NCBI GenBank assembly: GCA_964658305.1
Contig: OZ210885.1
Coordinates: 3,596,001 to 3,660,000 of the forward strand
DNA from: Leptogorgia sarmentosa
Lineage: Eukaryota
DNA: 64,000 nt
Reading direction: 5' to 3'
Of this stretch, positions 15,601 through 58,330 are shown in pieces. Positions within the stretch are counted from its first letter, which is position 1. Each line of letters starts with the position of its first letter. Below the pieces are notes generated by a model. That model was not told where the DNA came from. It ran no database searches and worked only from the letters and a program-made list of their open reading frames with translations. The translations under genes were made by a program, and so were the position numbers.

Positions 15601-17222
15601 TTCTTATATAGTCAGTAATCAAGGCAAAGAAGATGAAAGTAAATCACTTTCTTGATGGTTTATTTATTCTGTTCATGATATCAAAATACCGTTGACAAAA
15701 TGTTGGGATGAACATGCAACATTCTGAATTCTTGTATTATAGAAACTGTTGACGGTCAAGATACGAAGCAATCCAGTTGTGGGAAAATCCAAATAGATCT
15801 CCTCATTCCTCTGGTTATATTTATTCTTTGTTTTCTGCTGTCACTTGGTGTAATCATATATCAACGTCGTCTCATTCAAAATTATAAAAAGCTATCTGGC
15901 CGGGACTACGAGGTGCCAGAAAAGGCAAAAGCACAGCAAACGATTAAATCTAGTATGTATACTTATTCTTTCAGTTAAGTTATTCTATTAACCAGGGGCG
16001 TAGCCAGCCCTACAAAAGTGAGGGGGTCCATTCATCCAGTAGATCATATACAGTTATACTGCGCAACAATATGTCCAAACGTTCATGTATTTTAGGCGGG
16101 GGTGTTATGAACTTGAAAATAACAAATGTTTCACAAGTGCACCTTAAACAAAACAGCCTAATGTGTGTGTATATGAATCAAATAATATATTAATCAAATG
16201 TTGGGGATGCAATGGTGCATGATTAGACTGTGAGGAGGCGTACTCGATATTCCTTATATCCGCTTTCTTACTTGATTTTGAAGGAATTGAAAGACATGTT
16301 TTGAATAAAAGTGGGGGGTCCGGACCCCCCCCCCCCCCTCCCATTCCATCCCGTTAAATTAAATTTGTCAGCAGTAGACTGTAGTACATGAAAACGCAAA
16401 TCTTAAAATATAACTGCTTCTTGATCTACAACCTATATCTTGTTTAAGCTCGTTGCAAGGCATTTTTATTTTGTTATTCAGGCTTTCCCATGGTTATAGA
16501 AGTAATGTTAATCAGAGAGAATGCATAAACATGGCAGGGTTCTAAACTCGGCCTCAAACGAAAAGGCCTTTTGGGGCCTGCCCGTTCCAGAATCTTTCGG
16601 TTTATGAACACTTGTTTGGCCAAAAACACAGAAAAGAGTCATGGGAGGGGGGGCTCATATTCATATATTCGGGTTCACAGACCTTGATTTCAAAACAACC
16701 CACAACAATTGATTTCAAAAGGAATAAGGAAAGCAAAACACGAATATATAAATATTAGCCCCCCCCCCCCGTCATTTGTTAATCTTCCGCGGTCGCTGAA
16801 TTCAACCCATGACAGCCTGTTGTATATTGCATATCCGTTAGGGTTATCTCGAGCGTTTGTTTCGCGTGGGTGAACTGACAATGATAACTAATTATCAGGG
16901 ATCAAAATGTAAGAGATGCATCAACACCTTTCTTAATTCCATTCTAGCTCTTGAAGGTAACAACAAAACTGTGAAAGCCGTCAAAGCTGCTACCGGCAGT
17001 GATTTGTACACGAATGACGAATATAAATCACCTGACTGCTTTGCTAAAGGGAACAAGCAAAATGAAACTGAATCTCAACAAGAACTTTCTGCTGCAGAAG
17101 AACCCTACATGTCTTTGAAAAACCGCAGAGATCCTGAGAACGTTTATCAATCGCTGCAATTCCCCAATATTCAGACCGTGGAATATGAAAATCCCACATT
17201 TACGTCCAAAGGGCAAATGTAG
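6684..17222 (+). CDS. Receptor copy B: SP, ricin-B-like, SUEL, SRCR-like, F5/8C, FN3 x2, juxtamembrane, TM, ITAM/ITIM-like tail (about 977 aa)
   Basis: Exons 6684-6744, 8463(8490)-8900, 9399-9707, 10512-10808, 11276-11553, 11916-12042, 12552-12830, 13665-13940, 14186-14264, 14553-14811, 15145-15190, (15612-15638), 15743-15952, 16948-17222. Phases are compatible and there are no internal stops. The canonical exon-2 acceptor is AA (8488-8489); an in-frame cryptic AG lies at 8461-8462. Confidence 0.8.
7056..7820. repeat. Local direct duplication of about 400 bp in copy B intron 1
   Basis: aaaaatcaaaatgtatgttatatttggttt... starts at 7056 and again at 7457, with matching downstream sequence. Confidence 0.85.
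15993..16352. mobile_element. hAT-type MITE with one TIR lost, specific to copy B
   Basis: Begins CAGGGGCGTAGCCA. The body is the reverse complement of the element at 48451-48700. It is absent at the homologous site in copy A (ctattaac|gttaaatt). Confidence 0.75.
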
Positions 17223-20101: not shown

Positions 20102-23100
20102 ATGTCGCGGCTTTTTCATCAATGGCTATCTTATTTTAGCATATTCTTGGTTGTGTTTGAAGGTAATGTGTGATAGGTTGTAGGTTGTAGTCAGTACACC
20201 AACAGCACTGATAATATTTTTTTTACTCCATTTGCCCACCAATATCGATCATAGAAAGTTTAAGGCTTCAAGCTTGGCGTTCAAGTGTCAAACGTGAAAC
20301 AGTAAAGACAAACTGACAAAGTTTCAACCGTAAGCAGTAGAATGTCAATAGACGTGTTGTTAAATTATTCTTGTGACATGAGAAAGAAAGTGGTTAAACC
20401 AAAATTCTGCGGCAAAAGTTAGACCTTCCGTTCGCCGTTCGCCGAAGCATAAACTCTCTGATAATATGAGTCTGAAAATAAAATAAAAATGTATGTTATA
20501 TTTGGTTTACAAATGTTTTGCTTGCGATAAATTATGCAGTATGCGTGGTGGCATTAATGATCAAGACTATATAGGCTGAGTTTATACTGTATATACATTG
20601 CCTAAACATTATTGACAACTTAGGTTCTGGAAGTTGGTTCAGGAACAACAACTTAATTGGTTCAGGAAGTTGTGATAATTTAGTTAAGTGCCTGTTAACT
20701 GTGGTATATCTGTGGGTAAAAAGTTTATAAATTACACTCAAACCATGTATAGTTATTATTAGTACCCTGATCTGAAGGTGTTTGAGGTATCATGTTTGGT
20801 ATTAATAATGATGAGTAGTTTGTAATTCTTCTTCAGGCATAATGATTTTAATAAAAAAGTTAAAAAATATTAAAACCGTCCAGACGTTACTCCGATTAAG
20901 GCTTCTTCAGTGGACTAACTGTTCGAGTAATATTAGGTTACTTATATACCTAATCACAAACAATAGATATATATTAAAATATTTATCTATTGTTTGTTAG
21001 AATAGGGTTGAGAGTTTTTATTTTTTTCATGTATTCTAACAAAACTAAACGCTGTAACCTTGGCTATGTCTATCCGTAAAACTTACAATTATCTGTCAAC
21101 CCGAACTAAGTTCCCTAAACAAACGCAACGAACTCGTATCCACTTGCCGACATCGCAAGAAATTCTATTGCGGTAACATTCATGCAATACTCATCAGGTG
21201 GGTCAATGATTTCTGTTTGATGAAAGAGGCTGTAGTGGCAAATTTTTGAGGCAAAACTATATTTGCCCCACTTGTGTTGTTATCAGTGTCATTGCAGTTT
21301 CAATTTTTATCCTTCTCTGTTCAGATTGTGGAGGCCTTTTCCTCAGGCATACCCAGACTGGAAAGTGTATTACGCCATCTGAAGAACTCGCGTTCGATGA
21401 TCCAAGGGCCGCTCTTCCTTACTATGTTGTATTGACTGACAACTGCTTGAACGATACAGCACAATTCCGTTATCTTGATAGGCCGCTGTTATTCAATATT
21501 GAGAAGCAAGGAACGCTGTGGCCTCCCGGCCACCCTGCCTATATGTCTCGTTGGTGGGTTTACAACGGCGTACATCCCAGTAAAATTAGACACGAAATCA
21601 GCAGTTCCAATTATTTAAAACAAACAGCTGCAGGTTCTTTATTCTTGTACAATCTGGATGTATGTGCTCAGCCCGGTTCATCAAATTATCTATTGAGGGC
21701 AACGTGTGGTAGCACTGCAGAGCAAGAGTTTACATTTGGTAAGTGAAATTTAATATGTACTGAACTCCGCACAATAGACCTTACCGATTATTCACATTTT
21801 ACCTAATGGCCTCGTTTTCACGCTGTATATTTACTCGTATTTCGCGCACAATATGGTTAAAATTGAGTAAGCCTATGATTGAGTTTAAGTTATAAACAAA
21901 CAAATTCATTCGAAAAAAGTCGGAAAATGACTTTCATGTGAGCTTACCAAACGACAAGAAGCAAAACATGTAAACGAGGCCATTGGGTAAACGGGAATAA
22001 TCGGTAAGGTCTATTATGTCGAAAGAACAAAACTGATTACGTAGAATGGATTGATTTCGATATACGCGCTTAAAATGCGGCGTTATGGTTGACATACATA
22101 CAGACAGTATTGAATGTTACACTCCTTAGAGTAGTTATTTAACCCGGTACTGTTTGCGTTTATATTCATAGGAGGAGGAATACATATTACTGTTCATAGA
22201 CAGATTTCTTTTGAAATAAACATAAAAGAAATTCGTCGAATAACGGCAAACAATGACTTCATAATTCTCCATATTGTGCGCAAACTGAATTTAATAATTA
22301 TTGTATTATTCATTTAAAATTTTAGAACATTCAATTCAAATTCGCTATTTAATTTGTGGAAACTTAATACCTGTTGTTTTTAGCTATCCTTCAAAATATA
22401 GTCTGTTGAAGTTTTTATTGATCTTTTTGTATTCAAAGAAACTTTTTTCGCAGTAATTCTTGAATTTCGACTTTCCTTTATTTGTATAAAAAAGTTAAGT
22501 TAAAAAAAACAATTCCTTAGACCTATATAACAGCCATCGTCGTGAGTAGGGGGGCGTCAGCGTCAATATGAGTTAGTTTGATAATGGTCTTTTGCATTGT
22601 GTGTAAGAAATATTTTCAAAATGGAATTTGAAATTGCGAAAGCTAATTAAGTCACCAGCTCAAAGTGATAATTATGAGGTGACTGTGTCAAATCGCTTTT
22701 CACACTTGGTTTATCTCTACTTAGGGCGATGCGAGATTTCTCTATGACCAGACGAAAATCTTTTATTTGGATTTTTTTAAATGCAGTCCACGATTGGGAA
22801 AATTGGTCTAATATCAACTCTGTTTTATAGGTTCAGTGACAGCCTATAACGCTGAAATGGAAAATGTACACTGCTCTTCAGAACAGCATATGATGGTAAA
22901 GAGTGCTGATTATGGAGATTTTAATGATAGTGGTACATTTAATCCCAAGCCAAACATTGATACACAATGTAGCAGGCTTACCACTTGCCAAGTGAAATCT
23001 CGTTGTAGCGGAGGGAAATCGTGTGAACTGGTACTCGACAGTAATTTGCTACCATCACAATATTGTCCCGATACTTCAAAACAAATATATACCAAGTACA

Positions 23101-26100
23101 CTTGTGTGGATACCTACAGCTCCTCCGCTATAACTGCAGGTAAAATTTATTGAAATGTTGTTGTATATTATTTTTCTCTTTTAAATTTCCTTTTTTGCAC
23201 TCTTGATGCTGCTGAATCAAAGATAAGGCACTAAATTCTGTGTTTGAGATAATTTACATAAGGTTCGGCACATGAAATGTTTGACGTCTGAACTACGATC
23301 TTAACCAATAATGCATAGAACGGCAGGCCGAACCGACTATTTCCAGTTTTAAATGCGATTAAAGATGATGTTTTACCTCAAGGGGTTTTAATAATTATAC
23401 GCACGAGAAATGAATCATTGTTCGATAATTTATGGTCAAGATTGTTGCCCTGAGGATCGTTATCGCAGGCTCATGAGACCAGCAATTGAAAATCCGAATA
23501 GATGCATGGGATACAACTGCAACTATCTTTACTTTGGATGTGCATGTTATGTTTGCATTTTGAAGTATATAAAGCTCGGAAGAATTTTATATGATTTATT
23601 TTGGCAATCACATTAATGAAATGCTAGTAATATATCATCAATAATATATGCAATGTGACCGAGCCAAATCAAAGTTCTCTCTTCAAGAACGGGCACTTTG
23701 CGTACGACGTTTTTTTGAATGCGAAGTATTTCATAACCATAATAAGTAACGAAAGGCAAATCCCAGCAGCAATTGTTTTCAGAAAATTTTTCTTAGGTTT
23801 TGTTAAAATGTGTTCAAAGGTTAAAACCAGTACGGCCCAAGACTGATGATTTCGAAAACAGCTCTATCTATCCGAACGATAATAAAGCATATGAATTATT
23901 TAGGAGTGTTCATAATTTGATAATATTATTAATGTTTTAGCTCCCAATATTAGATTGTCAAACCGAAGCGAAGGGTATATTGAAATAAAAAATGGTTCAA
24001 TATGGAAGAAAGTTGTCGAGGAAAACTGGGATAAAAACCGTCAAAAAATGCTGTGCCAGTATTTAGGATTTGATGAGATTGATGGCAATAATATTGAAAC
24101 TACACAATTAGGGAGTGGACAAGAGATTGTCACTGGGGACTTGATCTGTTATAACGCACAATCAAACAGAACATCCTGCTGTGTCCATCTTAAACCTTTA
24201 ACAACCAATACAAGTACTGCGATTCCAGATGTGAGATGTAAGTACCACATCACTGACATCAGATGTAAGTTTCCACTTATCAGTTCTATACAGAGCCGCC
24301 ATATTGCATTAAATTAATTTTGGTGCTGCACGAATACATTTCTGCTATACTACAATGGATTTCTAAGCATGTGAACAAGGCCGAAAAATGCAGGAAACAT
24401 TTAAGTCACTCCGATGATTGTGTTTTTGTTCAGAGTAAGCACCTACCTAAATGAATGACGTAATTTCAACCTACGAACGTGGCTGAATCAATGTTTTGAA
24501 AATGTAAATAATTCAGTCTGAGATATTCAGTTTCCTGTCATGCACAATAAGTAATATTGTATTATCGCATCGATGAATTTACTTTAGTTTTTCAATTTTC
24601 GTCGCAGGCAAAATATGTAAGAACCCACTACTGCAAGATGAAAATACTTTTCCAGACTCTGTGTTTTCCGGCAGTGGTGATCCAAGTGGGAACTACAAAG
24701 ATGCGAGAATCACTAAAAGTGGCTGGTGTCCATTGGGGTCCGGCAGCACATACCTCTTGCTCGACCTTCAGAAAGAATATCACATAACTCAAGTTGTGGT
24801 TATGGCTGATGAAGAACAAACAAAATGGAGCGGCTCATATTCTTTGAAATACAGTCACGACACTTCTTATGAAAACAGCGCAAAGGTACAGTTATTATAG
24901 TAATGAAGTAAATGCTTTCCTGAAAATGAATGGTAGAAAAGAGTTGGTAGAGAAGACTTGATGAAACAAGACCTTGCTGACGTATCTAGATTGACTAACT
25001 CCTATACCCTTGTAATATAAAATAGAAACGGGATTTACCTACAATTCCGGCGATCTTCAGTGCATGGTATACAATACGTGATATAGTTAGATAACTATAA
25101 AGCGTCGAAAAAGAAATCTAAGACTGCACATATTTAACTTAACAAGGAATTGGACGAATTTAATTATCGATGATGTACATATTTCTTAACGTAACTGTTT
25201 GAGATCACGAGTTCTTCCTAATTTTCAGGAATTTGGAAACCAAAACGGCTACCAAGCATCAAGAACAAGCCTTGATATTTATAATGTCAGACACATGAAA
25301 ATAGAGTCCACTGGAAACAGAAACTTTTGTCTACGTATAGAACTTTGTGGAGAGGGTAAGAAATTGAGGAACAGTGAATAACATACATGAATGCCGAGAT
25401 TGTCCGCTCGCAAAGAAACATGTTATTTAGTCGAATACAAAGTTTTTATTGTATTGTAATGTCAAACAAGGTTTGGGAGTAATTAGCATGGTAAATCGTG
25501 TTACTCAATAGTCAATATTCAAGATATGAAGATAATTCAAGATGTTTCGCGACTTAAATTAGAGCGGTTTCTGGCCCCCTCAAATTTCTTTCAGGACCAT
25601 TCTCACAAAACTGTGTAGATGTGATAAAGGGCGGGGGCGGGCGGTGGGAGTGGGTGCAAGGGGCGTTAGAAGATCCAATAATGATGCTGTTGAAGTATAG
25701 AATATTATGCTTTATTCCGATATCTCACCAGGAAAATGCAGTCTAAATTTCAACATTTTCTGGCGGAGCAAGCCCCCCCCCCCCCCCCGAGACCCCTTCA
25801 TCAGAGGCTCTAAATTCTCCGGCGATCTAGAGGCTCTAAATTCTCAAAATTTTCTCGCTCGACGCCAGCCATGGTGGCGTCTCGTGAGACTCGCCCCCCC
25901 CCCCCGATCTTAAAACCGTTCCTACGCCCCTAGTATTCAAGATGTTTAGCGACTTAAATTAGAGCGGTTTCCGGCCACCTCGAATTTCTTTCAGGATCAT
26001 TCTCACAAAAGGTTTACAACTGTGTAGATGTTATGGGGGGGGGGGGGGTGTAAGGGGCGCTAAAAGATCCAATAATGATGTTGTTGAAGCATGGAATATT

Positions 26101-29100
26101 ATGCTTTATTCTGAAATCTCACCAGCAAAATGCAGTCTAAATTTCAACATTTTCAGGTGGAGCAAGCACTTGCCCCGAGACCCCCTGCAGTATACCACGA
26201 ATCTCGCTCCAGAAAAAATGACCTTGGATTGATCGTCCATACTTTGTTTTTAGTTCAAATGCCAGATGAAGTATCCAATGTCTCAGTTTTACCGTCGAAA
26301 TTCTCTGCAACCGTAATGTGGGAAATATCTACATCAATTCAGCACTCCAGCTATATAACAGAGATCTTCATATACCTCAACGGCCAAGTACACAAGACTG
26401 TATCTCGGGGGACTCAAGTAACTATAGAGGGACTTTTACCGTATACTTCGTATTCTGTGGGAATTCAAACTCAGGATGGTTCATCGCAAAAGAGTCAAGT
26501 AGTTACCAAACTTTTCATGACAAGAGGAATCGGTATGTTTGGGGAAGCATGCTTCTATATAGATACCTTATTCGTACTTAATTTCGCGATTGGAAAAAAA
26601 TCGCAATCGAAAGTCCCGCGAAAAAAAAATCCCCACGAATTTACACACGCGAAATTAAATACCCTCGTATATAAACAATTTAAAATTATTAAATTATTAA
26701 TGTTTTCTTAACGATCAATCATAGTTATCAGTACATAAGAACTTCCCCTAGATGACAAATTTCTAAAATCTTCATAATAATGTCGAATGAGTTTTATCTG
26801 ACTAGAGAAAACATTATGGGCTGCTTCAAAGTATAGTATACAATTTGTTACGGTTCCAACCAAGTTTAAATCATAGTATAAATGATTCTCAGAAAAAAAC
26901 TGTATCCCTTTTTCTATTGAAAAGTCTCGCGAAATATGGCTTCAAAAAAATCGCGAAATTAATTAGGTGCAAAATTAAGTACGACTGAATAAGGTATGTA
27001 CTCGTCGGGAATGCTATAATAACAGAATTACAGAACAACGATAATTGCAGACTGAAGGTTTAAGGTGTGGTTGGGTACTGTTTGTGGAATCACCTTCTTT
27101 AATCTGCTAAAAACGGGGACAAATTTATTTCCTCTTCTGGAAAATTCATTCATCAAGGTGAACATCACCATGTCATGATAGCACTGTAATTTGTAGCTAC
27201 ACACAGCATTGTTCGAATCTGTACTAATATAAACAACAACTTTTCGTCTTTAACAACATGTGATTGGTTTTCCATTGTCTTCTTGTCGTAGCACCTCCCG
27301 CAGTCATTTCAAAGATCCTATCAACGGCCTCTAAAACGTACACTATCTTCTGGGTTCAACCAACACTGCCTGCTGGACAAATCGTCCTGAAGTACATTAT
27401 AAACTACAGAGTTCTCAATGGATCCAGTAATTCAAAAAATGTATCAAAGGATATGACATCTATTACTATTGATGTTGAATATGAGAAACAGTACATTTTT
27501 GAAATACAAGTTGTGACCGAGCCGGGAATAAGTAATGTGACGTCAAGAACCTGGTTCTCTCATTCAGGTATAAAATACATGATTTTTTTCTACAATGGGA
27601 CAGTAGGAACGGTTTAGTTTATGGTACTGGGAAATTTATCTGCGCCGAATTTTTTCTTGGAGGGATTGGGCACTGTAGTGCATAAAAATTATGCATCGGT
27701 CATTCAAAAGTACTTTTAAAAGAAACTTCTCAACCTGTCTTAGCACACCTCAAATTTCTGGCATATAGTTAAAATATCGGCGATTGAAACAATTTGGTTG
27801 TTTATTATTCCATTTATTATTCAATTTTATTTTGTTTTTTATCCCTTCTATGTAGCGCCCTTGAAAACGCCAACCAAAATGAACGACAGTTACACGGTAA
27901 CACTGATAAAGCCAAGAAAAGAGCAAAATATTAAGTAAGTTGTCATGAAATAGTTAATAGTAGTTGTGGCTATAACGAACTCATTTTGTTGTAAAACATG
28001 ACTTTGTTTTCTTGTCTTTGAACTCTTGTAAACTGTTCTGAGTTACTTACCTTGAGCAAGTTGAAGTATTAGACCTCGTTTAAAGTGCGAAAGCTTAGTC
28101 AGACGAAACTATAGGTAAAAGTTGTAACTAAACAGCAACTACTGCGAATTGCAAGAAGAAGCAACGTTCCAGATAACGAAATACCTACACGCAGATACTT
28201 TCTTTTTTTAGGCAAGTCACTCTTGTGTTACTCAAATCAAAAAATCTCCTGGCACCAGAAGAAGTTGAGCTGCGGTCGTCGCCTCCTTCAGATGAAGAGA
28301 ACGATATCGCCTTTAAAGCTAAAGTATTTGATATAACGGACTTTCAAGAAGATACAATAGAAATATCACTTCAACAGACTCCATACAAACGACGAAGAAG
28401 GAGAAATGCAGTTGTAGTTGAGGCATTGTCACCTATGTCAACCTACAGGGCTGCCCAATTAAACACTGACGAGTCTGAGGTAGGTTAAAATAACTTCTTT
28501 GCCCAGGAAAGATTCATGCAAAAAACGACTTTTGAAACGGACCCATGCATGTCAGAAATTTTCGACTGAGAAATCACGGTATTGCCAAGGTCAAATGATC
28601 ATCCCAAAATCTCAACATCTATTTTGGGTAAAGTCAGAGAGCTCTTTCGAACCTTTGCATATCATTGCAATTCCTATTGGTTGCGACTAGCGGGCTTACA
28701 AAATCTTGTTTATAATCCATGATTTCAGAACCGTAACGAATAGATGTACTCTCGCAATGAGGAATAGCGTCATTGTGATAGTTGTTTAACTGAAATTTGG
28801 CATTTTTTTAGAATGAACGTTGGTCATATTGGAGTGAACCTTTTACTTTCATTGGAGGTAGGCTACATGTATTTATAAAATAACCGGAAGTAAGTGAAAA
28901 AGACTGCGCGCGCGTGATTGGCTAACAGTCGTGTTGATGTGAGATTATGTATATTGTGAAATGTGAGATTATTTCCACACATTTCTCGTTCTCCCAAACT
29001 TGCACTCGTGTTTACATAACTCGATCCAAACATGGAAAATGTTTTCAATTCCTTAAATACAGCTAAGGGTATATACTTGCGAACTTCAAACCTTGAACTG

Positions 29101-30036
29101 AAACTGTAACCGTACAAAGCATGATGGGAGCCGCATTTTATCAGTCCAGAAATTATATATAGAAACTGTTTTGTTTCTTGTCTTGTATTATAGAAACTGT
29201 TGACGGTCAAGATGCGAAGCAATGCAGTTGTGATAAAATCCAAATAGATCTCCTCATTCCTCTGGTTATTTTTATTCTTTGTTTTCTGCTGTTACTTGGT
29301 GTAAACATATATCAACGTCGTCTCATTCAAAATTATAAAAAGCTATCTGGCCGGGACTACGAGGTACCAGAAAAGGCAAAAGCAGACCAAACGATTAAAT
29401 CTAGTATGTATACTTATTCTTTCAGTTAAGTTATTCTATTAAAGGTAAATGAAATTTGTCAGCAGTATACTGTAGTACATAAAAACGCAAATCTTAAAAT
29501 ATAACTTGCTTCTTGATCTACAACCTATATCTTGTTTAAGCTCGTTGCAAGACATTTTTATTTTGTTATTCAGGGCTTGCCAAGGTTATAGAAGTAATCG
29601 TAGAAGTAATGTCAATTTTATTCAATTTGAGCTAACCTTTTTCTCCATACCTTCCTTTCATGCTTAATCAGAGAGAATGCATAAACATGGCATAACTAAT
29701 TATCAGTGATCAAAATGCAAGAGATGCATCAACACCTTTCTTAATTCCATTCCAGCTCTTGACGGTAACAACAAAACTGTGAAAGCCGTCAAAGCCGCTA
29801 CCGGCAGTGATTTGTACACGAATGACGAATATGAATCACCTGACTGCTTTGCTAAAGGGAACAAGCAAAATGAAACTGAATCTCAACAAGAACTTTCTGC
29901 TGCAGAAGAATCCTCGACCTACATGTCTTTGAAAAACCGCAAAGGTCCTGAGAACGTTTATCAATCGCTACAATACCCGAATGTTCAGACCGTGGAATAT
30001 GAAAATCCCACATTTACGTCCAAAGGGCAAATGTAG
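20102..30036 (+). CDS. Receptor copy C, intact: SP, ricin-B-like, SUEL, SRCR-like, F5/8C, FN3 x2, juxtamembrane, TM, ITAM/ITIM-like tail (about 974 aa)
   Basis: Exons 20102-20162, 21325-21738, 22831-23139, 23941-24237, 24608-24885, 25229-25355, 26254-26532, 27292-27567, 27856-27934, 28212-28479, 28812-28857, 29194-29403, 29756-30036. They sum to 2925 nt in one open frame, all GT-AG. Motifs: MSRLFHQWLSYFSIFLVVFE (SP); LRHTQTGKCI...QFRY...QEFTF (ricin-B-like); SADYG...VKSRCSGGKSC...KYTC (SUEL); IRLS...EGYIEI...W...WD...LCQYLGF (SRCR); ARI...GWCP...YLLLDL...CLRIELCG (F5/8C); LLPYTSYSV (FN3); LLIPLVIFILCFLLLLGVNIY (TM). Confidence 0.9.
21776..22012. mobile_element. TIR MITE specific to copy C
   Basis: AGACCTTACCGATTATTC...GAATAATCGGTAAGGTCT form TIRs of about 40 bp. 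The empty site acaat|tatgtc is present in copy B, implying a 2-bp duplication. Confidence 0.8.
25530..26190. repeat. Direct duplication of about 260 bp of intron sequence in copy C
   Basis: attcaagatgttt...ccgagacccc occurs at about 25535-25796 and again at about 25934-26185. It is single-copy in B and D. Confidence 0.8.
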
Positions 30037-31878: not shown

Positions 31879-34800
31879 ATGTCGCGGCTTTTTCATCGAT
31901 GGCTATCTTATTTTAGCATGTCCTTGGTTGTGTTTGAAGGTAATGTGTGATACGGCTGTATAGTCAGTACAGCAACAGTACTGACAATATTTTTTACCCC
32001 AATAGCTCACCAATATCGATACTTGAGAAAGTTTAAGGCTGCATGCTTGGCGTTCAAGTGTCAAACGTCAAACAGCAAAGACAAACTGACAAAGTTTCAA
32101 CCGTAAGCAGTAGAATGTCAATGGACTTGTTGTTAAATTATTCTTGTGACATGAGAAAGAAAGTGATTAAACCAATATTCGGCGGCAAGAGTTAGACCAT
32201 TCCGTTCGCCGTTCAGCGAAGCATAAACTCTGTGATAATATGAGTCTAAAACTAAAAATGTATGTTATATCTGGTTTACAAATGTTTTGTTTACGATAAA
32301 TTATACAGTATGCGTGGTGGCATTAATGATCAAGACTAGTTTACTGAGTTTAGGCCCAGTTCAGACGTCGAACTTTTCATGTGCCGAACCTAATGTTAAT
32401 GAGCAAAGTTCTTTGTTTGAGCTCATTTGCATTATAGGTTCGGCACATGAAAAGTTCGACGTCTGAACTGGGCCTTATTCTTATATATACATTGCCTAAA
32501 ATTAATAGTTCTGGAGAAGGTTCAGGACTGAAGAACAACTTGGTTCAGGAAGTTGTGATATTATAGTTAAGTGCATACATTGGGTAGAAGGTTTATAAGG
32601 TTTATAAATTACACTGAAACCCTATCGTTGCATGTAATTAGTACCTGATAAATATATATAATATATGATAGAATAATAGTGGTTTATTAACGTATAAAAA
32701 TCAAACGAACACGAGTTTCTCCAGAGTGTCAAACGACCACAAGGGACGCGAGCTCTGCTCTCGCCCCGAAGCATAAATAGGTTTTTGTTATAATATGCCT
32801 ATATAGCAATGTTCAAAAACAATATGATGCAGATATTCACGAATAACAATCGTGATTAAGCGTGCATTGACATCCATATTGACACTGCATGTGCATATAT
32901 GATATTAGGTGTTTTTAAGAAATTAAGATATCTTTGTAAAGTGTACTGATGCCATCGATTTTATGTCCTTGAGAGTTCAAAAGAGCTTCGTGGGTTCAAC
33001 TTCGTGCTGCAGGCACTGAAATTCTAACAATGGATTATTTTAAATATTTGCGATTTTTTTGTACACCCTGTATTTGACAAATTGAAGACAGTCATTCTTT
33101 ACAGCTAAAATATATTCATGTCGAAAAAGCTTGGGGAGGAAGCAATATCAATGTGTCGCGGGATCAGAACTTTACATTAGCCTGAGTACATTCGCGCGGA
33201 AATTATTTTACTGATACTTGTGTTGTTATCAGTGACATTGATAACTGCATCATCATAATCATTCAGTTTTTATCCTTCTCTGTACAGATTGTGAAGGCCT
33301 TTTCCTCAGGCACACCCAGACTGGAAAGTGTATTACGCCATCGGAAGAACTCGTGTACGATGCTCCAAACACCGCTTTACCTTACTATGTTGTATTGACT
33401 GACAACTGCTTGAACGATACAGCACAATTTCGTTATCTTGACAAGCCGCTGTTATTCAATATTGAGAAGCAAGGAACGCTGTGGCCTCCCAGTCACTCTG
33501 CCTATATGTCTCGTTGGTGGGTTTACAGAGGCGTAGATCCCAGTAGAATTTCGCTGGAAATGAGAAGTTCCAATTATTTAAAACAAACAGCTGCAGGGTC
33601 TTTATTCTTGTACAATCTGGATGTATGTGCTCAGCCCAGTTCATCAAATTATATATTAAGGGAAACGTGTGGTAACACAGCAGAGCAAGATTTTACCTTT
33701 GGTAAGTGAGAATTATACTGGACACCGCGCACAATTATATGTCGAAAGAATAAAACTGATTGCTATATTCGTCTTCTCCCCGACAGATTTGTTTTGAAAT
33801 AAACTTGAAAGAAATTCCTCAAATGAGGGCAAACATTGGGCTTGATAATTCTTCATATTGTGCGAAAACCGAATTAAATAATTGTTTTATTATTTATTTA
33901 CAGTCGGTTTCAGGTCACTTTCACTGTTTGTATTTAGCCAACCAGAAACCAGGAATTTTAAAATAAATAATAATGCTCTTTGCATTGTGTGTAAGAAAGA
34001 AATATTCCCAAAATGGAATTTGAAATTGCGAAAGCTAATTAAGTCACCAGTTCAAAATATTAATTATTAGGTGACTGTGTCAAATCGCTTTTCACACGTT
34101 TATCTCTTATTTATTGCGATTTCAGGTTTCCCTATGACCAGACGGAAATTTATTTGGATTTTTTTAAATGCAGTCCACGATTGGGAAAATTGGTCTAATA
34201 TAAACTCTGTTTTATAGGTACAGTGACAGCCTATAACGCTGAAATGAAAAATGTTCACTGCTCTTCAATACAGCATATGATGGTAAAGAGTGCTGATTAT
34301 GGAGATTTTAATGATAGTGGTACATTTAATCACAAGCCAAACATTGATACACAATGTAGCAAGCTTACCACTTGCCAAGTGAAATCTCGTTGTAGCGGAG
34401 GGAAATCGTGTGAACTGGTACTCGACAGTAATTTGCTACCATCGCAATATTGTTCTAATACTTCAAAACAAATATATACCAAGTACACTTGTGTGGATAC
34501 CAACAGCTCCTCCGCTATAACTGCAGGTAAAATATATTGAAACGTTATTACTCTTGTCTCTTGATGTTGCTGAATCAAAGGTAATGATCTAAATTCTTTG
34601 TTTGAGATCATTTACATTAGGATCGACTTATGAAAATTTCGACGTCTGAACTACGATCTTAACCAATAATGCATAGAACGGCAGGCCGAACCGACTATTT
34701 CCAGTTTTAAATGTGATTAAATATGATGTTTTACCTCAAGGGGTTCTAATAATTATACGCACGATACATGAATCATTGTTCGATAATTTATTGCCAAGAT

Positions 34801-37800
34801 TGTTGCCCTGAGGATCGTTATCGCAGGCTCATGAGACCAGCAATTGAAAATCCGAATAGATGGGATACAACGACAACTATCTTTACTTTGGATGTGCATG
34901 TTATGTTTGCATTTTGAAGTATATAATGCTCGAAAGAATTTTATATGATTTATTTTGGCAATCACATTAATGAAAAACTAGTATCAATAATATATGCAAG
35001 CTGACCGAGCCAAAGCAAGGTTCTCTCTTCAAGAACGAGCACTTTGCGTACGACGTTTTTTTGAATGCGAAGCATTTCGTAACCATAACAAGCGATGAAA
35101 CGCAAATTCCAGCAGCAATTGTTTTCAGAAAATATGTTTTTCTTAGGTTTTTGTTGAAATGTGTTCAAAAGGTTAAAACCAGTACGGCCCAAGACTCATG
35201 ATTTCGAAAACAGCTCTATCCGAACGATAATGAAGCATATGAATTATTTAGGAGTGTTCATAATTAATTTTGATAATATTATTAATGTTCCAGCTCCCAA
35301 TATTAGATTGTCAAACCGAAACGAAGGGTATATTGAAATAAAAAATGGTTCAATATGGAAGAAAGTTGTTGAGGAAAACTGGGATAAAAAACGTCAAAAA
35401 ATGCTGTGCCAGTATTTAGGATTTGAAGAGATTGATGGCAATAATATTGAAACTACACAATTAGGGAGTGAACAAGAGATTGTAATTGGGGACTTGATAT
35501 GTTATAACACACAATCAAAAAGAACATCCTGTTGTGTCCATCTTAAACCTTTAACAACCAATACAAGTACTGCGATTCCAGATGTGAGATGTAAGTACCA
35601 CATCAGATGTAAGTTTCCACTTATCAGTTCTATACAGAGCCGCCAATTGCATTAAATTAATTTTGGTGCTGCACGAATACATTTCCGCTATACTAGAATG
35701 GATTTGAACAAGCATGTGAACAAGGCCGAAAAATGCAGGGAACATTTAACTCACTGCGATGATTGTGTTTTTGTTCAGAGTAAACACCTACCTAAATGAA
35801 TGACGTAATTTCAACCTACGAATGTGGCTGAATCAATGTTTTGAAAATGTAAATAATTCAGTCTGAGATATTCAGTTTCCTGTCATGCACAATAAGTAAT
35901 ATTGTATTATCGCACCGATGAATTTAATTTAGTTTTTCAATTTTCGCCGCAGGCAAAATATGTAAGAACCCACTACTGCAAGATGAAAATACTTTTCCAG
36001 ACTCTGTGTTTTCCGGCAGTAGTGATCCAAGTGGGAACTACAAAGATGCGAGGATCACTAAAAGTGGCTGGTGTCCATTGGAGTCCGGCAGCACGTACCT
36101 CTTGCTCGACCTTCAGAAAGAATATCACATAACTCAAGTTGTGGTTATGGCTGATGAAGAACAAACAAAATGGAGTGGCTCATATTCTTTGAAATACAGT
36201 CACGACACTTCTTATAAAAACAGCGCAAAGGTACAGTTATTATAATAATGAAGTACATGCTTTCCTGAAAATGAATGGTAGAAAAGAGTTGGTAGAGAAG
36301 ACGTGATGAAACAAGATCTTGGTAACGTATCTAGATTGACAAAATCCTACCCATGTAATATAAAATAGAAACGTGATTTACCAAATTCCGGCGATCTTCA
36401 GTGCATGCTATATAATAGCGTGCAATTAGATAACTATAAAGCGTCGAAAAAGAGAAGAGATTTTAAATCTAAGACTGCACATAATTATTTAACTTAACAA
36501 GGAATTGAACGAATTTAATTATTGATGATGTACATAATTATTTCTTAACGTAACTGTTTGAGATCACGAGTTCTTCCTAATTTTCAGGAATTTGGAAACC
36601 AAAACGCCTACCAAGCATCAAGAACAAGCCTTGATATTTATAATGTTAAACACATGAAAATAGAGCCCACTGGAAGCAGAAACTTTTGTCTACGTATAGA
36701 ACTTTGTGGAGAGGGTAAGAAATTGTAATGTCAAACATGGTTTGGCAGTAATTAGCATGGTAAATCGTGTTACTCAATATTCAAGATATGAAGGTATTCA
36801 AGATGTTTAGCGACTTAAATTAGAGCGGTTTCCGGCCCCCTCGAATTGCTTTCAGGATCATTCTCACAAAAGGTTTACAACTGTGTAGATGTTATGGGGG
36901 GGGGGGGTGTAAGGGGCGCTAAAAGATCCAATAATGATGTTGTTGAAGTATGGAATATTATGCTTTATTATGAAATCTCACCAGCAAAATGCAGTCTAAA
37001 TTTCAACATTTTCAGGTGGAGCAAGCACTTGCCCCGAGACCCCCTGCAGTATACCAAGAATCTCGCTCCAGAAAAAATGACCTTGGATTGATCGTCCATA
37101 CTTTGCTTTTAGTTCAAATGCCAGATGAAGCATCCAATATCTCAGTTTTACCGTCGAAATTCTCTGTAACCGTAATGTGGGAAATATCTACATCAATTCA
37201 GCACTCCAGCTATATAATAGAGATCATCATATACCTCAACGGCCAAGTACACAAGAACGTATCTCGGGGGACTCAAGTAACTATAGAGGGACTTTTACCG
37301 TATACTTCGTATTCTGTGGGAATTCAAACTCAGGATGGTTCATCACAAAAGAGTCAAGTAGTTACCAAACTTTTCATGACAAGAGGAATCGGTATGTTTG
37401 GGGAAGCATGCTTCTATATAGATACCTTATTCGTATATACTTAATTTCGCGATTGGAAAAAAATCGCAATCCAATGTCCCGCGAAAAAAAAATCCCCACG
37501 AATTTACACACGCGAAATTAAATACCCTCGTATATAACAATTTAAAATTATTAAATTATTAATGTTTTCTTAACGATCAATCATAGTTATCAGTACATAA
37601 GAACTTCCCCTAGATGACCAATTTCTAAAATCTTCATATGTCGAATGAGTTTTATTTGACTAGAGAAAACATTATGGGCTGCTTCAAAGTATAGTATACA
37701 ATTTGTTACGGCTCCAACCAAGTTTAAATCATAGTATAAATGATTCTCACAAGAAACTGTATCCTTTTTCTATTGAAAAGGCGAAATATGGCTTCAAAAA

Positions 37801-39704
37801 AATCGCGAAATTAATTAGGTGATTAAATTGAATAAGGTATGTACTCGTTGGGAATGCCATAATAACAGAATTACAGAACAACGATAATTACAGAAGTTTT
37901 AATGTGTAGTAGGGTGCTGTTTGTGCAATTACCTTTTTTAATCTGCTAAAAACGGGGACAAATTTATTTCCTCTTCTGGAAAATTCATTCATCAAGGTGA
38001 ACATCACCATGTCATGATAGCACTGTATTTTGTAGCTACACACAGCATTGTTCGAATCTATACTATTATAAACAACAATTTTTGGTCTTTAAAAACATGT
38101 GATTGGTTTTCCATTGTTTTCTTGTCGTAGCACCTCCCGCAGTCATTTCAAAGATCCTATCAACGGCCCCTAAAACGTACACTATCTTCTGGGTTCAACC
38201 AACACTGCCTGTTGGACAAACCGTCCTGAAGTACATTATAAACTACAGAGTTCTCAATGGATCCAGTAATTCAAAAAATGTATCAAAGGATATGACATCT
38301 ATTACTATTGATGTTGAATATGAGAAGAAATACATTTTTGAAATAAAAGTTGTGACCGAGCCGGGAATAAGTAATGTGACGTCAAGAACCTGGTTCTCTC
38401 ATTCAGGTATAAAATACATGAAATGTTTTTCTACAATGTGACAGTAGGAACGGTTTAGTCTATGGAACTGGGAAATTTATCTGCGCCAAACGTTTTCTTG
38501 GAAGGGGGGGGGGGGGGGGGGGTGTACTTTAGTATATAAAAATTCTGCATCGCTCATTCAAAAGTACTTTTAAAAGAAACTTCTCAACCTGTCTTAGCAC
38601 ACCTCAAATTTCTGGCATATAGTTAAAATATCGGCGATTGAAACAATTTGGTTGTTTTTCCATTTATTATTCAATTTTATTTTGTTTTTTATCCCTTCTA
38701 TGTAGCGCCCTTGAAATCGCCGACCAAAATGAACGACGGTTTCACGGTAACACTGATAAAACCAAGAAAAGAGCAAAATATTAAGTAAGTTCACATGCAT
38801 GAAATAGTTAATAATTTGACAATAATGGAATCATTTTGGTGTAAACTATGTCTTTGTTTTCTTGTCTTTGAACTCTTGTAAACTGTTCTGAGTTACTTAC
38901 CTTGAGCTAGTCGACGTTTTAGACCGCGGTTAAAGTGCGAAAGTTTATTCAGACGAAACTATAGGTAAAAGTTGTAACTAAACTGCAACTATTGCGAATT
39001 GCAAGACGAACCAAGGTTCCAGATAGTGAAATACCTACACGCAGATACTTTCTTTTCTTAGGAAAGTCGCTCTTGTGTTACTCAAATCAAAAAATCTCCT
39101 GGCACCAGAAGAAGTTGAGCTGCGGTTGTCGCCTCCTTGAGATGAAGAGAACGATATCGCCTTTAAAGCTAAAGTATTTGATATAACGGAGTTTCAAGAA
39201 GATACAATAGAAATATCACTTCAACAGACTCCAGACAAACGACGAAGAAAGAGAAATGCTGTTGTAGTTGAGGCATTGTCACCTATGTCAACCTACAGAG
39301 CTGCCCAATTAAACACTGACGATTCTGAGGTAGGTTACAATAACTTCTCTGGGCAGGAAAATTCATGCAAAAAACGTCTTTTGAAACGGACCCATGTCAG
39401 AAATTTTTCAACTGAGAAATCACGGTATTTGCCAATGTCAAATGATCATCCCAAAACCTCAACATCTATTTGGGGTAAAGTCGGGGAGCTCTTCCGAACC
39501 TTTGCATATCATTGCCATTCCTATTGGTTGCGACTAGCGGGCTTACAAGATCTTGTTTATAATCCATGATTTCAGAACCGTAACGAATAAATGTACTGTC
39601 GCAATGAGGAATAGCGTCATAGTGATAGTTGCTTAACTGAAATTTGGCATTTTTTTAGAATGAACGTTGGTCATATTGGAGTGAACCTTTTACTTTCATT
39701 GGAG
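31879..39704 (+). pseudogene. Receptor copy D: ectodomain exons only, premature TGA in the juxtamembrane exon, own TM and tail exons absent
   Basis: Exons 31879-31939, 33288-33701, 34218-34526, 35294-35590, 35953-36230, 36588-36714, 37113-37391, 38131-38406, 38706-38784, 39062-39329, 39659-39704. TCA>TGA at 39138-39140 (CCT TCA GAT in A, C and E) would give a protein of about 732 aa without a TM. Homology to the other copies stops at about 39762. Confidence 0.75.
32353..32474. mobile_element. Harbinger/PIF (Tourist-like) MITE with TTA target-site duplication
   Basis: GGCCCAGTTCAGACGTCGAACTTTTCATGTGCCGAACCTA is followed by its exact reverse complement and flanked by TTA on both sides. The site is empty in copies B and C. 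Confidence 0.85.
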
Positions 39705-40734
39705 GTAGGCTATATGTATTTATAAGATAACCAGAAGTAATTGAAAAAGACTGCGCGCGCGCGACCTTAAGCATGTAGGACGGGAACGTCACGAAAAAGA
39801 CAAACCAAATCGTTGAAGTAAATGATCGTTTGAGAATGCTTGTCCTCTAATATATATTTCGCACGAAAAAGAATTCTCCTAAGGGTGAATGTTTACACCG
39901 AGCTTATGCCTGGAAAGTAAGAGTTTAGGGCCCAACTGACAGCAGAACTGGATGTAGCATAGTTTAATATGGACGAAGGCAGAACGTGATAATCTGTATT
40001 TTGCCGTTGTTAACAGAGTAACGACGTCGTGTAAAACTCCCGCGATATTTCAATCGGCAAAGCTGCTCATTCTCTTTCTTTGATATCATATAAACAACTG
40101 ACCAAGTTTCACCTTCATCTTGCTTATTAAAGTTATTAATGAGTGTTTTTCTTTACGATTATTAAAAAGGGTAAGAAGATTGTTTTTCTTGCCATGTTTC
40201 CGTACTAGAATCCGCTTTGCTTATATAAGCTCCTTAATTCATGAACCTCGGATACGGTCAGATTTCGGCTTGGAATCTCCCCTGCCCTCTGCGTGTAGCA
40301 ACTGAGAGGATGTTGCTAAAATGTCGGAAAAGTCTGGATTGCCCCCCCCCCCTGCCGAACAGCTCCCCCGACACCACTGAGCTGTGAAACAAAAAATCTG
40401 AAAAATTATTATCCACCCATCAGTTCTATATGCAAAGCCGCCATATTGCATTAAATTTATTTTCGTGCTGCATTAATACATTTCCGCCATACTCTGATGG
40501 ATTTCTAAGCAAGTGAACAAGGCCGAAAAATGCAGGAAAACTTTTAATTCACTGCGATGATTGTGTTTTTGTTCAAAGTAAGCACCTACCTGAATGAATG
40601 ACGTAATTTAAACATGCTAATGTGGCTGAGTCAATGTTTTCAAAATGTACATAATTCAGTCCGAGATATTTTTCCAGCTACTATAAGTAATATTGTATTC
40701 TTGCACCCGATGAATTTAATTAATTTCGTTGCAG

Positions 40735-43700: not shown

Positions 43701-46700
43701 GCCCTTGAAAACGCCGACCAAAATTAACGACAGTTACACAGTAACACTGATAAAGCCAAGTAAAGAGCAAAATATTAAGTAAGTTGACATGAAATAGTTA
43801 ATAATTTGAAGCAACTCACTTTTGTGTCTATAATGAATTCATTTTGTTGTAAAATATGTCTTTGTTTTCTTTTCTTTGAACTCTTGTAAAGTGCGAAATT
43901 TTAGTCAGACGAAACTATAGGTAAAATTTGTAACTAAATTGCAACTATTGCGAATTGCAAGAAGAAGCAAGGTTCCAGATAGTGAAATACCTACACGCAG
44001 ATAGTTTCTTTTCTTAGAAATGTCGCTCTTGTGTTACTCAAATCAAAAAATCTCCTGGCACCAGAAGAAGTTGAGGTGCGGTTGTCGTCTCCTTCAGATG
44101 AAGAGAACGATATCGCCTTCAAAACTAAAGTATTTGATATAACGGACTTTCAAGAAGATACAATAGAAATATCACTTCAACAGACTCCAGACAAACGACG
44201 AAGAAAGAGAAATGCAGTTGTAGTTGAGGCATTGTCACCTATGTCAACCTACAGAGCTGCCCAATTAAACACTGACGAGTCTGAGGTAGGTTAAAATAAC
44301 TTCTTTGCGCAGGAAAATTCATGTAAAAAATGACTTTTAAAACGCGCCCATGTCAGAAATTTTAAACTGAGAAATCACGATATTGCCAACCTCAAATGAT
44401 CATCCCAAAATCTCAACATCTTTTTGGGTAAATTCAGGGAGCTCTTTCCGAACCTTTGCATATCATTGCCATTCCTATTGGTTGCGACTAGCGGGCTTAC
44501 AAGATCTTGTTTATAACCCATGATTTCAGAACCGTAACGAATAAATGTACTGTCGCAATGAGGAATAGCGTCATAGTGATAGTTGTTTAACTGAAATTTG
44601 GCATTTTTTTAGAATGAGCGTTGGTCATATTGGAGTGAACCTTTTACTTTCATTGGAGGTAGGCTACATGTATTTATAAAATAACCGGAAGTAAGTGAAA
44701 AAGACTGCGCCCGCGTGATTGGCTAACAGGCGTATAGATGGGAGATCGCTAGATGGTATACTCCAAAATAAGATATCCGCGACTGCTGTACATTCACGTC
44801 AGCGGTGATAGAAATTTCTATTGGCGTATTCACAAAATAAACCAGTCCCAAACCATAAATCTGACCCTAACCTTTGGTTATGGTTTGGGACCCGTGGTTA
44901 GGGTCAGATTTATGGTTTGGGACTGGTTTATTTTGTGAATACGCCAATAGAAATTTCTATCACCGCTGACGTGAATGTACAGCAGTCGCGGATATCTTAT
45001 TTTGGAGTATACCATCTAGCGATCTCCCGTGTAGATGTGAGATTATGTATTGTGAAATGTGAGATTATTTCCACACATTTCTCGTTCTCCCAAACTTGCA
45101 CTCGTGTCTACATAACTCGATGCAAACATGGAAAATGTTTTCAATTCCTTAAATACAGCTAAGGCTATATACTTGCGAACTTCAAACTGCAGATCTTCCT
45201 TGAACGATAGATCCTTGAACTGAAACTGTAAGCGTACAAAGCATGATGGGAGCCGCATTTTATCAGTCCAGAAATTATATATGAGGCTCATTTCTTAGGA
45301 CAATGGTAAACGACTGCTACATACAATTAAAAAGCCAATATTTACCTTATGGGCTGGAAATTGTGCTGCCCTATATGCTTTGCGCGCTCACATGGCGTTT
45401 TCAATTCAACGTTTGGAAAGTAGTTGTAGTCTGTTTATCAAATCGTCTTAATAAAATTTCAGTGCGATATGTTATATTTTAACATTATTTGGGAATCTTA
45501 TTGCACATGCAAATTCTTCAAGTGTTCTAAGCAGATTTCAGATATTTAAAAAATAGATGGCGGATGTGCCGCAGGGTAAAAAGTATTATTTAAAAACCAA
45601 TATCTATTCAAAATTAATTTTCTTGAAATTTTTCATAAAATATTTTTGTATAGTCAGTGATGAAGGTAAAGAAGATGAAGAAAGTAGTGGTGGAGGTCCA
45701 GGTGTTGCTGTTGTTGTAGGCATCGCAGTTGCTGCCGCCGTTCTTATTGTTGTTGCTTTGGTTCTTGCTGTTATCTACTTCAGAAGAAGGTAAATTTCGG
45801 TAATGAGCGATGACTCTGACATGAACAACAGATGTTGCTCACACAGCTCCATCTCTGCTAAATTCATTAAAGTAAGATACTCTTGATCACAAAGATATCG
45901 TATTTAAATTTTCAGCGTCTAAGATAGGGTGCTTATTCAGGGATGGCGCTCATTCGGGGGAGGGGCTTTTAAAAAATACTTCATGTTCAATGTCAACAAG
46001 AACTATTAAGTTACTTGAACTTCAAAAATACACTCATCAGTTCACTGACACGGGCTGTAAGATGTGATGTTAGCTTTTTGAATAATCATGATAGTGTACT
46101 CAAAAACAAGTGTGGCGCTCATTCATGGATGGCGCTTATGAAAGATGCGGCGCTCTGGCGAGTAAATACTGCAGTATGTATAATATTGTACTCTCACTGT
46201 CGAAGTGAGAGTTTCAAAGTGATACATTTCAAGAAAGAGAGAAATTTGTTTTAGGTTTTTAGTGGATATTTTTTGTGGCAACACTGGCTGGTTTATTTTA
46301 TGTTTCTTTACAACTGATACATCTCAGTATATTTGAATTTCATTTAGTTGACGCAGAATATAATTAACACTATATTGGCCTTCTATGTTAAACTTCCTAT
46401 GTCCGTAGGAAAACGTACAAAGAGCATGGCGAGAAAGGAGAAGAGAGCCATGATTATGAAGAGATGGATACGTTTGAAAACAGATCTGCTGAGATTGGCC
46501 AGCCAAATGATTCCTTTGCCCATGAAAATGGTAATGACAGTCGCAATGATGAAGTGATGAATGGATTGGAAAACGAAAATAATGAAGAAGACGCCGGAGA
46601 GGCAAATGTTGCAACTGCCAATGGAAATAATAAAGACATTTATTCAAATGAATCGGGTAAAATAATGTTAACAAAATTTTTGTAAGGGTGTAAATAAAAG

Positions 46701-47840
46701 TTTACTGTGGGAAGTATTGCCTGAGCTAACGAGCGCACGAAATTTGTGAAAAATAACATAGCCAGATTTCCACCCTCTAGTACATCTAGCACTGAGTTTA
46801 TTTAAAAATCTATCTTTTTTAGAGTAGGAAATTTGTTGTTGGAAGGCACTTTAAAGTTTTGTGAAATTTGGTGCCGGCAGAGTCAACAGAGGCATGTCCG
46901 AAAACTGGATTTTACGTTCTTTCCTGTGTGATTACCGATTAATTTATGCATAATTACATATTTGCATTAATTACCAATGCAAATTGAAAGCTAATTCCCA
47001 AAGGTCCGTAATCACGCGAAGAAATTGCGGCAAATCCAGTTTTCGGACATCGTACGTTCGTCTCAGCGTCCACCAAATTTCTCAAAACTTGAATAGCCTG
47101 TATATCATACTCCATATTTTCATCTGACTAAATCAAACTGTGTGAAGAAAACTTATTTTTTGCGCGCAAGCCGTTTTTAATGGGCCTTTCAGTAACCACA
47201 TTTCCCGTTCTAAAAAAGTTTGTTTTTAAAATAAAGTTAGTACAATATATACCAGAGGGTGTTAAAATACCCATTCTAACCGAAAGTTTTTGGAAATTTT
47301 GAGCGCTCGTTAGTTTAGAGAATGTTTTTCATCAGTAAACTTTTTTTTATACATCCCGTAGATATTTGCTTTAGTTTTAGGTGCGTGATACTTGGGACTA
47401 TGGTGCGATACTTCGCACGAATATTTAGTGACGTCCAAGCAGCAATAATGTGAACTTTATTCATTTAAAACGGATTTATTTAACTATTTTAATTTTAAGG
47501 GGACGTTGGAGTAAAATCACATCCATCTGTGCCAGTTGAAGAATTTTCACATTATGTCAACGAACTGAAAGCAAGCGACAACCGTGAATTCGAAGCCGCT
47601 ACCGGCAGTGAATTGTACATGAACGATGGATATGAATCACCTGCAGACTGCTTTGCTAAAGGGAACAAGCAAAATGAAATTGAATCTCAACAAGAACTTT
47701 CTGCTGCAGAAGAATCATCGACCTACATGTCTTTGAAAAACCGCAAAGATCCTGAGAACGTTTATCAATCGCTACAATACCCCAATATTCAGACCGTGGA
47801 ATATGAAAATCCCACATTTACATCCAAAGGGGAAATATAG
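40735..47840 (+). CDS. Receptor copy E (no own 5' exons): F5/8C, FN3 x2, juxtamembrane, alternative TM, acidic linker, RPTP wedge-like segment fused to the Tyr tail
   Basis: Exons 40735-41012, 41342-41468, 42284-42562, 42997-43272, 43700-43778, 44018-44285, 44613-44658, 45654-45789, 46409-46656, 47500-47840, open and phase-compatible. TM is VAVVVGIAVAAAVLIVVALVLAVIYF followed by RRR. It probably forms the 3' part of a D+E transcript. Confidence 0.8.
43488..43610. mobile_element. Short TIR MITE with CTG duplication, specific to copy E
   Basis: GGGCCGGTTGTATAAAA...TTTTATACAACGACCC. The empty site aaatttctggcata is present in copies A-D. Confidence 0.7.
44740..45028. mobile_element. Foldback MITE with 133-bp perfect inverted arms, a 23-nt spacer and an imperfect 8-bp TSD
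   Basis: 44740-44872 is the reverse complement of 44896-45028. Flanks are gtatagat / gtgtagat. The empty site cgtgttgatgtgag is present in copies A and C. Confidence 0.9.
46685..47358. mobile_element. Degenerate TA-flanked non-autonomous TIR element (Tc1/mariner-like)
   Basis: GGGTGTAAATAAAAGTTTACTG...CTAACGAGCGC pairs with GCGCTCGTTAG...CAGTAAACTTTTT...ATACATCCC. An inner inverted pair is GTCCGAAAACTGGATTT / AAATCCAGTTTTCGGAC. Confidence 0.6.
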
Positions 47841-58259: not shown

Positions 58260-58323
58260 TTTTGCTCTTCTCTCTCTGGTGTACAAGCTAGCAGACTCTG
58301 ATTTTTACTGCATTTGCTCTGCC

Positions 58324-58330
58324 TTTTATA
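58324..58330 (-). promoter_or_regulatory. TATA box of RS-peptide paralog 2
   Basis: TATAAAA on the minus strand, 65 nt upstream of the ATG, positionally conserved with paralog 1. Confidence 0.7.

Follow-up and report, generated by a model that had tools for sequence, protein, structure and literature searches.

A candidate receptor gene of Leptogorgia sarmentosa joins a truncated receptor tyrosine phosphatase wedge to an ITAM-like tail

We have described here an unusual receptor gene of Leptogorgia sarmentosa, carried on a 64,000-nucleotide stretch of contig OZ210885.1 (assembly GCA_964658305.1, positions 3,596,001 to 3,660,000 of the forward strand; hereafter the window, with positions counted from its first letter). 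The window holds five tandem copies (A to E) of one multi-exon receptor gene, 83-93% identical to each other in DNA, and copy E is peculiar in that the first 30 codons of its last exon correspond to the wedge segment of a receptor-type protein tyrosine phosphatase (RPTP), after which the exon switches in frame, at 47591/47592, into the tyrosine-motif tail of copies A-C. Copy E is a real, spliced chimera in a family that has repeatedly exchanged a phosphatase for a tail resembling a tyrosine-based activation motif of immunoreceptors (ITAM), and this pattern across the family holds more interest than copy E by itself. We propose that copy E is a recombinant gene with RPTP transmembrane (TM), juxtamembrane (JM) and wedge exons in frame with the ITAM-like tail, encoding a phosphatase-less activating or endocytic receptor that is paired with intact RPTPs, a proposal for and against which we find the case evenly balanced.

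Exon models for all five copies were built with splice sites, and domains were assigned by Pfam scan of 14 open reading frames of the window and five parent proteins. The model of copy E comprises ten exons from 40735 with 691 open codons, and the TM, JM and last exons are in phase with one another. The last exon spans 47500-47840, follows the acceptor TTTTAAG in phase 1, and translates as G-DVGVKSHPSVPVEEFSHYVNELKASDNREF up to the switch and EAATGSELY... beyond it, to the stop codon TAG at 47838-47840. DNA identity to copies A, B and C begins at 47590 and runs at 91-94% to about 47914, and the sequence upstream of 47590 is unrelated to them. A sequence-only reading of the stretch had placed a mid-exon switch at about 47592, and the onset of identity and the agreement of phases bear it out. 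The bases TCAA are common to parent and tail at the join, with one further change in E; an RPTP wedge exon and a tail exon would have recombined non-homologously here, with this 4-nt microhomology as a plausible site.

Several comparisons identify the segment before the switch as an RPTP wedge, as the sequence-only reading had supposed. Alone, the 32-residue wedge has a phosphatase (2nv5) as its top match in the PDB, although weakly (E=0.022). A phmmer search of 1.84 billion proteins returned four matches, two of which are genomic wedge exons (P0005, E=1.7e-5, and P0006, E=1.9e-4); the other two, P0004 (a trypanosome calpain-like repeat) and P0007, were rejected as repeat-protein noise. One of these genomic wedge exons has its own match to 2nv5 (E=1.5e-4), with weaker matches to PTPsigma, PTPRU and PTPalpha. 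A profile built from the three wedge exons has five matches among 1524 candidates, and all five are octocoral RPTPs with the PF00102 catalytic domain (E from 5e-12 to 9e-8). A direct comparison is with the Paramuricea clavata RPTP CAB3995581.1 (P0024), to which the wedge of E is identical at 18 of 27 positions (67%; pairwise E=3e-10). This parent is collinear with the exons of the window from the signal peptide through the wedge and then continues into two catalytic domains, D1 and D2, and the RRRKR, LSPMSTYRA and SYWSEP motifs of the E ectodomain align to it; together with one clear and one weak FN3 repeat these confirm the RPTP-like ectodomain features that had been noted earlier. The comparison that matched the TM exon of E to four octocoral RPTPs gave no match to the tail-type relatives described below, and the JM exon is weakly similar to RPTP JM segments (best E=0.002 in a set of nine proteins), with IYSNE common to both. 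Homolog searches were less informative: the 113-residue last exon recovered three tail-type proteins and no RPTP among 82 candidates, and the JM exon recovered no RPTP among 26, each a weak blank. The derivation of the TM, JM and wedge exons of E from an RPTP is thus supported. We also note that two annotated octocoral RPTPs, P0022 (CAB4001321.1) and P0026 (XP_028417344.1), end inside D1, and these may be further truncations or annotation errors.

Copy E has the single TM, the JM segment and the wedge homologous to those of RPTPs, albeit with the wedge truncated and the JM similarity weak, whereas the one or two PF00102 catalytic domains that define the receptor-type phosphatases are absent before the stop codon; a comparison of P0024 D1-D2 with the window likewise found no phosphatase exon (best E=3.2). 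The sequence-only reading had further likened the segment to the wedge of LAR/R2-type RPTPs. The catalytic domains of P0024 do score best against PTPsigma (505 bits) and LAR (476), followed by PTPalpha (455), these being scores and not a tree. The ectodomain departs from that type: in LAR and other type IIa RPTPs, immunoglobulin (Ig)-like domains precede the FN3 repeats, whereas no Ig family was found in the Pfam scans of the 14 window frames and five parents, and the order is SUEL-SRCR-F5/8C-FN3. By these features copy E is RPTP-derived, yet neither an RPTP, for want of a catalytic domain, nor LAR-type, for want of an Ig domain.

The five copies are similar enough that the wedge/tail junction could in principle be an assembly artefact of a repetitive array, and no contig piece, among the matches listed, confirms the join of copies D and E near 39764-40287. 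The analysis covered the contigs of five of 17 listed sequencing runs (X1, which may be the source sample, X3, X5, X6 and X9), with 31 or more letters to either side counted as a bridge. Three of the five runs, from two studies, have contigs that cross the junction, with no gaps in any: by 268 and 94 letters with three differences in X1 (47324-47685), by 47 and 63 letters with none in X6 (47545-47654), and by 90 and 84 letters with two in X9 (47502-47675). A piece in X5 has just 12 letters on the left side, and no bridging piece is among the matches listed for X3. Ahead of 47502 the X9 record continues for another 203 letters, and the consensus there of two records, read by hand, agrees with the end of the JM exon plus the first two letters of the wedge exon at 23 of 30 positions but with the intron at only two of 30, so this record is spliced across to the junction-bearing exon; from such exon-exon joins we infer that X5 and X9 are RNA. 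Other contigs track the wedge to 47591 and then diverge, in X3 and X6 to KKQ[YF]K followed by GTAAGT, a natural donor site, and in X5 and X9 to KKQYKDLPKD and QKQYDDLPKD (30 letters of continuation read), the latter identical by hand count at nine of ten residues to the start of D1 in P0024. These runs thus contain intact wedge exons of several paralogs, and copy E is cut five codons before their donor. The bridging contigs and the wedge-to-D1 paralogs together argue that the junction is neither chance nor misassembly; misassembly, which the sequence-only reading had named as what would undo it, is refuted for the wedge/tail junction, and we regard an artefact there as very improbable.

The tail itself is older than copy E and belongs to a phosphatase-less family on RPTP-type ectodomains. 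Four intronless relatives (P0001, P0002, P0003 and P0008) have the same TM and tail at 44-63% identity. In P0001 and P0002 the TM and tail follow the WSEP exon, as in copies A-C, and in P0003 and P0008 they follow a domain that corresponds to P0024 residues 590-722 and is present in no window copy. All eight tails contain YMSL-x9-YQSL, which conforms to the ITAM pattern Yxx[IL]x6-9Yxx[IL], and NPxF, which conforms to the pattern NPx[YF]. Among 100,000 shuffles of the E tail, the ITAM pattern arose in 0.8% and both motifs in 0.03%; the cytoplasmic part of E has ten tyrosines. A metagenome scan returned one locus, which is the contig of P0002, and a search of the ESM Atlas with the tail of copy C returned only clusters without a name, under 0.9. 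Common ancestry of the A-type TM and tail with the RPTP TM and JM was considered and is not supported (hhalign probability 8.5%, TM only).

The same type of ectodomain therefore ends either in D1-D2 (P0024-P0026) or in an ITAM-like tail (A-C, E, P0001-P0003 and P0008). Copies A and B retain, within the intron preceding their own TM exon, the acceptor and first 26 nt of the TM exon of E (86-92% identity to E with flank), and copy C has lost this stretch. These relics constitute a second junction and indicate that RPTP and tail genes recombined repeatedly, such that RPTP and tail sequences have been joined at no fewer than three points: one follows the 590-722 domain, another lies where the TM exon begins, and a third falls within the wedge. 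The relics point to recent exchange and would favour a recent RPTP derivation of the ectodomains. The suggestion of the sequence-only reading that an RPTP lost its phosphatase by exon fusion holds in that the TM, JM and wedge exons are of RPTP type and no D1 or D2 exon is found in the window, but the swap is not a one-off in E, because A-C and the four relatives carry RPTP-type ectodomains on the tail through other junctions. Copy E could be either an RPTP whose 3' end was lost or a gene of the tail type into which 1.9 kb of RPTP sequence was patched.

Whether copy E functions is a separate question, and here a plausible though doubtful alternative is that birth-and-death turnover in a tandem array has left it as a by-product, transcribed but idle in function, with the C-type receptors and the intact RPTPs being the working genes. 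Against this alternative, all ten exons and splice sites of E are intact despite 3-10% divergence from the sister copies, the mid-exon join is in frame (a one-in-three chance), and the junction recurs in samples of two studies with zero to three differences and in a spliced contig. No frameshift occurs in 2078 nt of E, although introns have 0.014-0.017 gap events per site. For pairs with E, the ectodomain gives a dN/dS of 0.58-0.72 (p 0.03-0.18) and the tail one of 0.39-0.48, which is not significant; purifying selection is weak, and the constraint could stem from the parents before fusion.

Further points also weigh against our proposal, several of which suit an idle gene. Exons 1-4 of E, including the signal-peptide exon, were not found in the window; exons 5-11 of the ectodomain are present, and exons 1-4 are available only via copy D, which lies upstream, bears a stop codon, and is the likely source of the 5' exons of E in this haplotype. 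Of 11 splice routes tested from D to E, the six that are open all skip exons, and a message with every D exon included meets a stop at codon 733. Among the matches listed, no contig has 31 letters on each side of the join between the E ectodomain and the TM exon (the X1 piece begins at 45663). Three of the five copies (A by frameshift, B by a broken acceptor, D by a stop) are damaged, which indicates high gene turnover in the array. The ITAM-like spacer is nine in every tail, and none of the eight passes a stricter 6-8 rule. Finally, true pairing requires an intact RPTP of the same genome with an ectodomain near-identical to that of E.

A third possibility is that copy E is dominant-negative, dimerising with intact RPTPs through the common TM and JM and blocking D1 with its membrane-tethered wedge, in the manner of a natural wedge peptide. 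E alone among the copies retains an RPTP TM, JM and most of the wedge, but the wedge ends before KKQY(K/D), and most of its second helix is consequently gone. Moreover, the middle Pro of the HPP/YPP motif, which is Pro in the paralog contigs and in the wedges of five of seven relatives, is Ser in E, a weak hint that the stump may be relaxed, and the other tail-bearing copies manage without a wedge. Isolated LAR, PTPmu and PTPsigma wedge peptides inhibit their own RPTPs, according to the portions cited of PMC6016963, and these peptides (ISP and those of LAR and PTPmu) resemble E in that a wedge stands apart from its catalytic domain; they are synthetic, whereas the stump of E occurs naturally, tethered to the membrane and with its C-terminal end cut short. 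We consider a dominant-negative role unlikely.

We favour the activating or endocytic receptor, for which the motifs suggest an order of events. The receptor would cluster once ligand is bound by its lectin/SRCR/FN3 ectodomain, YMSL-x9-YQSL would then be a substrate for a Src-type kinase, and a tandem SH2 kinase of the Syk/Shark type would dock on the phosphorylated pair, with YENPxF promoting receptor uptake and the wedge stump acting as a passive spacer. An intact RPTP with the same type of ectodomain would give the opposite, dephosphorylating output. The roles of kinase substrate and SH2-docking receptor, and the inverted signalling logic, that the sequence-only reading attributed to E would fit these motifs, from which they are predicted.

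The features of the array are listed in the table below, with Pfam identifying SUEL, SRCR, F5/8C (below cut-off) and FN3 domains across it, and the best named relatives are octocoral.

Table. Gene copies A-D and the features of copy E, by position in the window.
Feature	Position	Strand	Remarks
Copy A	1..4298	+	5' end outside window; TM exon frameshifted; relic of start of E's TM exon at 3105-3130
Copy B	6684..17222	+	968-residue frame; exon-2 acceptor reads AA (broken); relic of start of E's TM exon at 15612-15637
Copy C	20102..30036	+	intact 974-residue phosphatase-less receptor with own TM exon and tail
Copy D	31879..39764	+	exons 1-11: signal peptide, N-terminal domain, SUEL, SRCR onward; TGA at 39138-39140; lacks a TM exon
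Copy E F5/8 type C domain	40735-41012 + 41342-41468	+	earliest E exons in window; PF00754 E=3.1e-5, below cut-off; splice sites
Copy E FN3 exons	42284-42562 + 42997-43272	+	PF00041, 29.5 bits (FN3a, clears Pfam cut-off) and weak E=0.06 (FN3b); 46-47% to P0024
Copy E membrane-proximal domain, polybasic RRRKR	43700-43778, 44018-44285, 44613-44658	+	50-75% to P0024 residues 810-939; 78% to P0001
Copy E RPTP-type TM exon	45654..45789	+	phases 1-2; 43-53% to four octocoral RPTPs
Copy E acidic JM exon	46409..46656	+	YEEM and IYSNE; phases 2-1; joined to next exon by splicing in X9
Truncated RPTP wedge	47500..47591	+	ends five codons before parent's donor site
Tyrosine-motif tail common to A-C	47592..47840	+	YMSL-x9-YQSL, YENPTF, stop codon; 93-94% DNA identity to A-C; motifs in all eight tails

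Between copies D and E (39764-40287), D ends in intron 11 and E starts in intron 4; about 520 nt of other sequence separates them, and the two were probably fused by a deletion. Intron 11 of E contains a long near-perfect inverted repeat (44746-45028) of very high depth in DNA runs, probably a miniature inverted-repeat transposable element. The homology of E to A-C stops about 75 nt past the stop codon at repeat sequence (47914-48311), and E has ATTAAA at +91, and A and B have AATAAA at about +230. A 137-residue N-terminal domain (8490-8900, 21325-21738 and 33288-33701) has no Pfam match; by eye only, it may resemble a ricin-type lectin, and its AlphaFold model was unusable (predicted local distance difference test score, pLDDT, 37). 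Its identity is 53-56% to P. clavata RPTPs and 39-40% to P0003/P0008, whereas the neighbouring domains show the reverse, which suggests domain shuffling. Elsewhere, a duplicated region (54339-54663 matches 58115-58443 at 72%) includes low-complexity Arg/Ser-rich or Ala/Thr-rich frames at 53757-54173 (- strand) and 57446-57715 (+ strand), for which the one Pfam match, to Transformer, is weak and below cut-off (E=4e-4).

The nearest known systems are the octocoral RPTPs themselves, of P. clavata (P0024) and Dendronephthya gigantea (P0026), which share with the window, in collinear order, the N-terminal domain, SUEL, SRCR, F5/8C, two FN3 repeats, the RRRKR domain, TM, acidic JM and wedge. E differs in having the tyrosine tail in place of D1 and D2, and no copy of the window has residues 590-722 of the parent. 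The tail may also resemble that of the engulfment receptors CED-1, Draper and MEGF10, which have YxxL and an NPxY-type motif in the tail and EGF-repeat ectodomains; the window tail likewise has YxxL and an NPx-type motif, but this is NPxF and is placed after the ITAM-like pair.

In vertebrate paired receptors, phosphatases recruited through tyrosine-based inhibitory motifs of immunoreceptors (ITIMs) are balanced against kinases recruited through ITAMs. The portions cited of PMC4042635 and PMC2832619 describe Siglec-5/Siglec-14 and CEACAM1/CEACAM3 as having similar ectodomains with opposite outputs, pairs that arose and are maintained through duplication, recombination and gene conversion. Related ectodomains on opposite cytoplasmic modules are found here too, and by analogy E would act as the activating member of a paired set, although in those pairs an ITIM lets the inhibitory member draw in a phosphatase, whereas here that member would be the phosphatase itself, and the window ectodomains are not Ig-type. 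More tentatively, and with our confidence short of even, we suggest that octocorals have a system of paired receptors whose inhibitory member would itself be a receptor phosphatase. Its activating counterparts would carry the same lectin/SRCR/FN3 ectodomains, moved by recombination at three or more different points to a single conserved tail of ITAM-like, endocytic type; E would be one such swap caught in the middle of an exon, and the activity of the parent enzyme may also be lowered by the tethered wedge of E.

Among cnidarians, the Hydractinia Alr proteins are clustered receptors with Fn3-like folds and an ITAM defined as Yxx[I/L]x6-9Yxx[L/I], and Syk and Shark homologs were found in Hydractinia, according to the sections cited of 10.1101/2022.03.04.482883. 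The tail motif described here fits that 6-9 spacer rule, but Alr belongs to the Ig superfamily, and those sections mention no RPTP origin. Corals commonly have tandemly expanded receptor genes, as stated in the part cited of PMC10236652, and the main texts of PMC11959691 and PMC10236652 gave no match for tyrosine phosphatase. The literature searched, with most subscription papers and supplements outside its scope, contained no account of the tail family or of a phosphatase-to-ITAM swap. If our proposal is correct, research into coral immunity or self-recognition gains concrete receptors to test. Copy E also documents, to the single base, a way for a receptor linked to an enzyme to part with that enzyme and acquire a predicted docking tail in one in-frame step. 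Relative to the recruited phosphatases and kinases of vertebrates, a cnidarian family in which an ITAM-like tail takes the place of an inbuilt phosphatase on one type of ectodomain would represent a simpler, independent route to paired-receptor logic.

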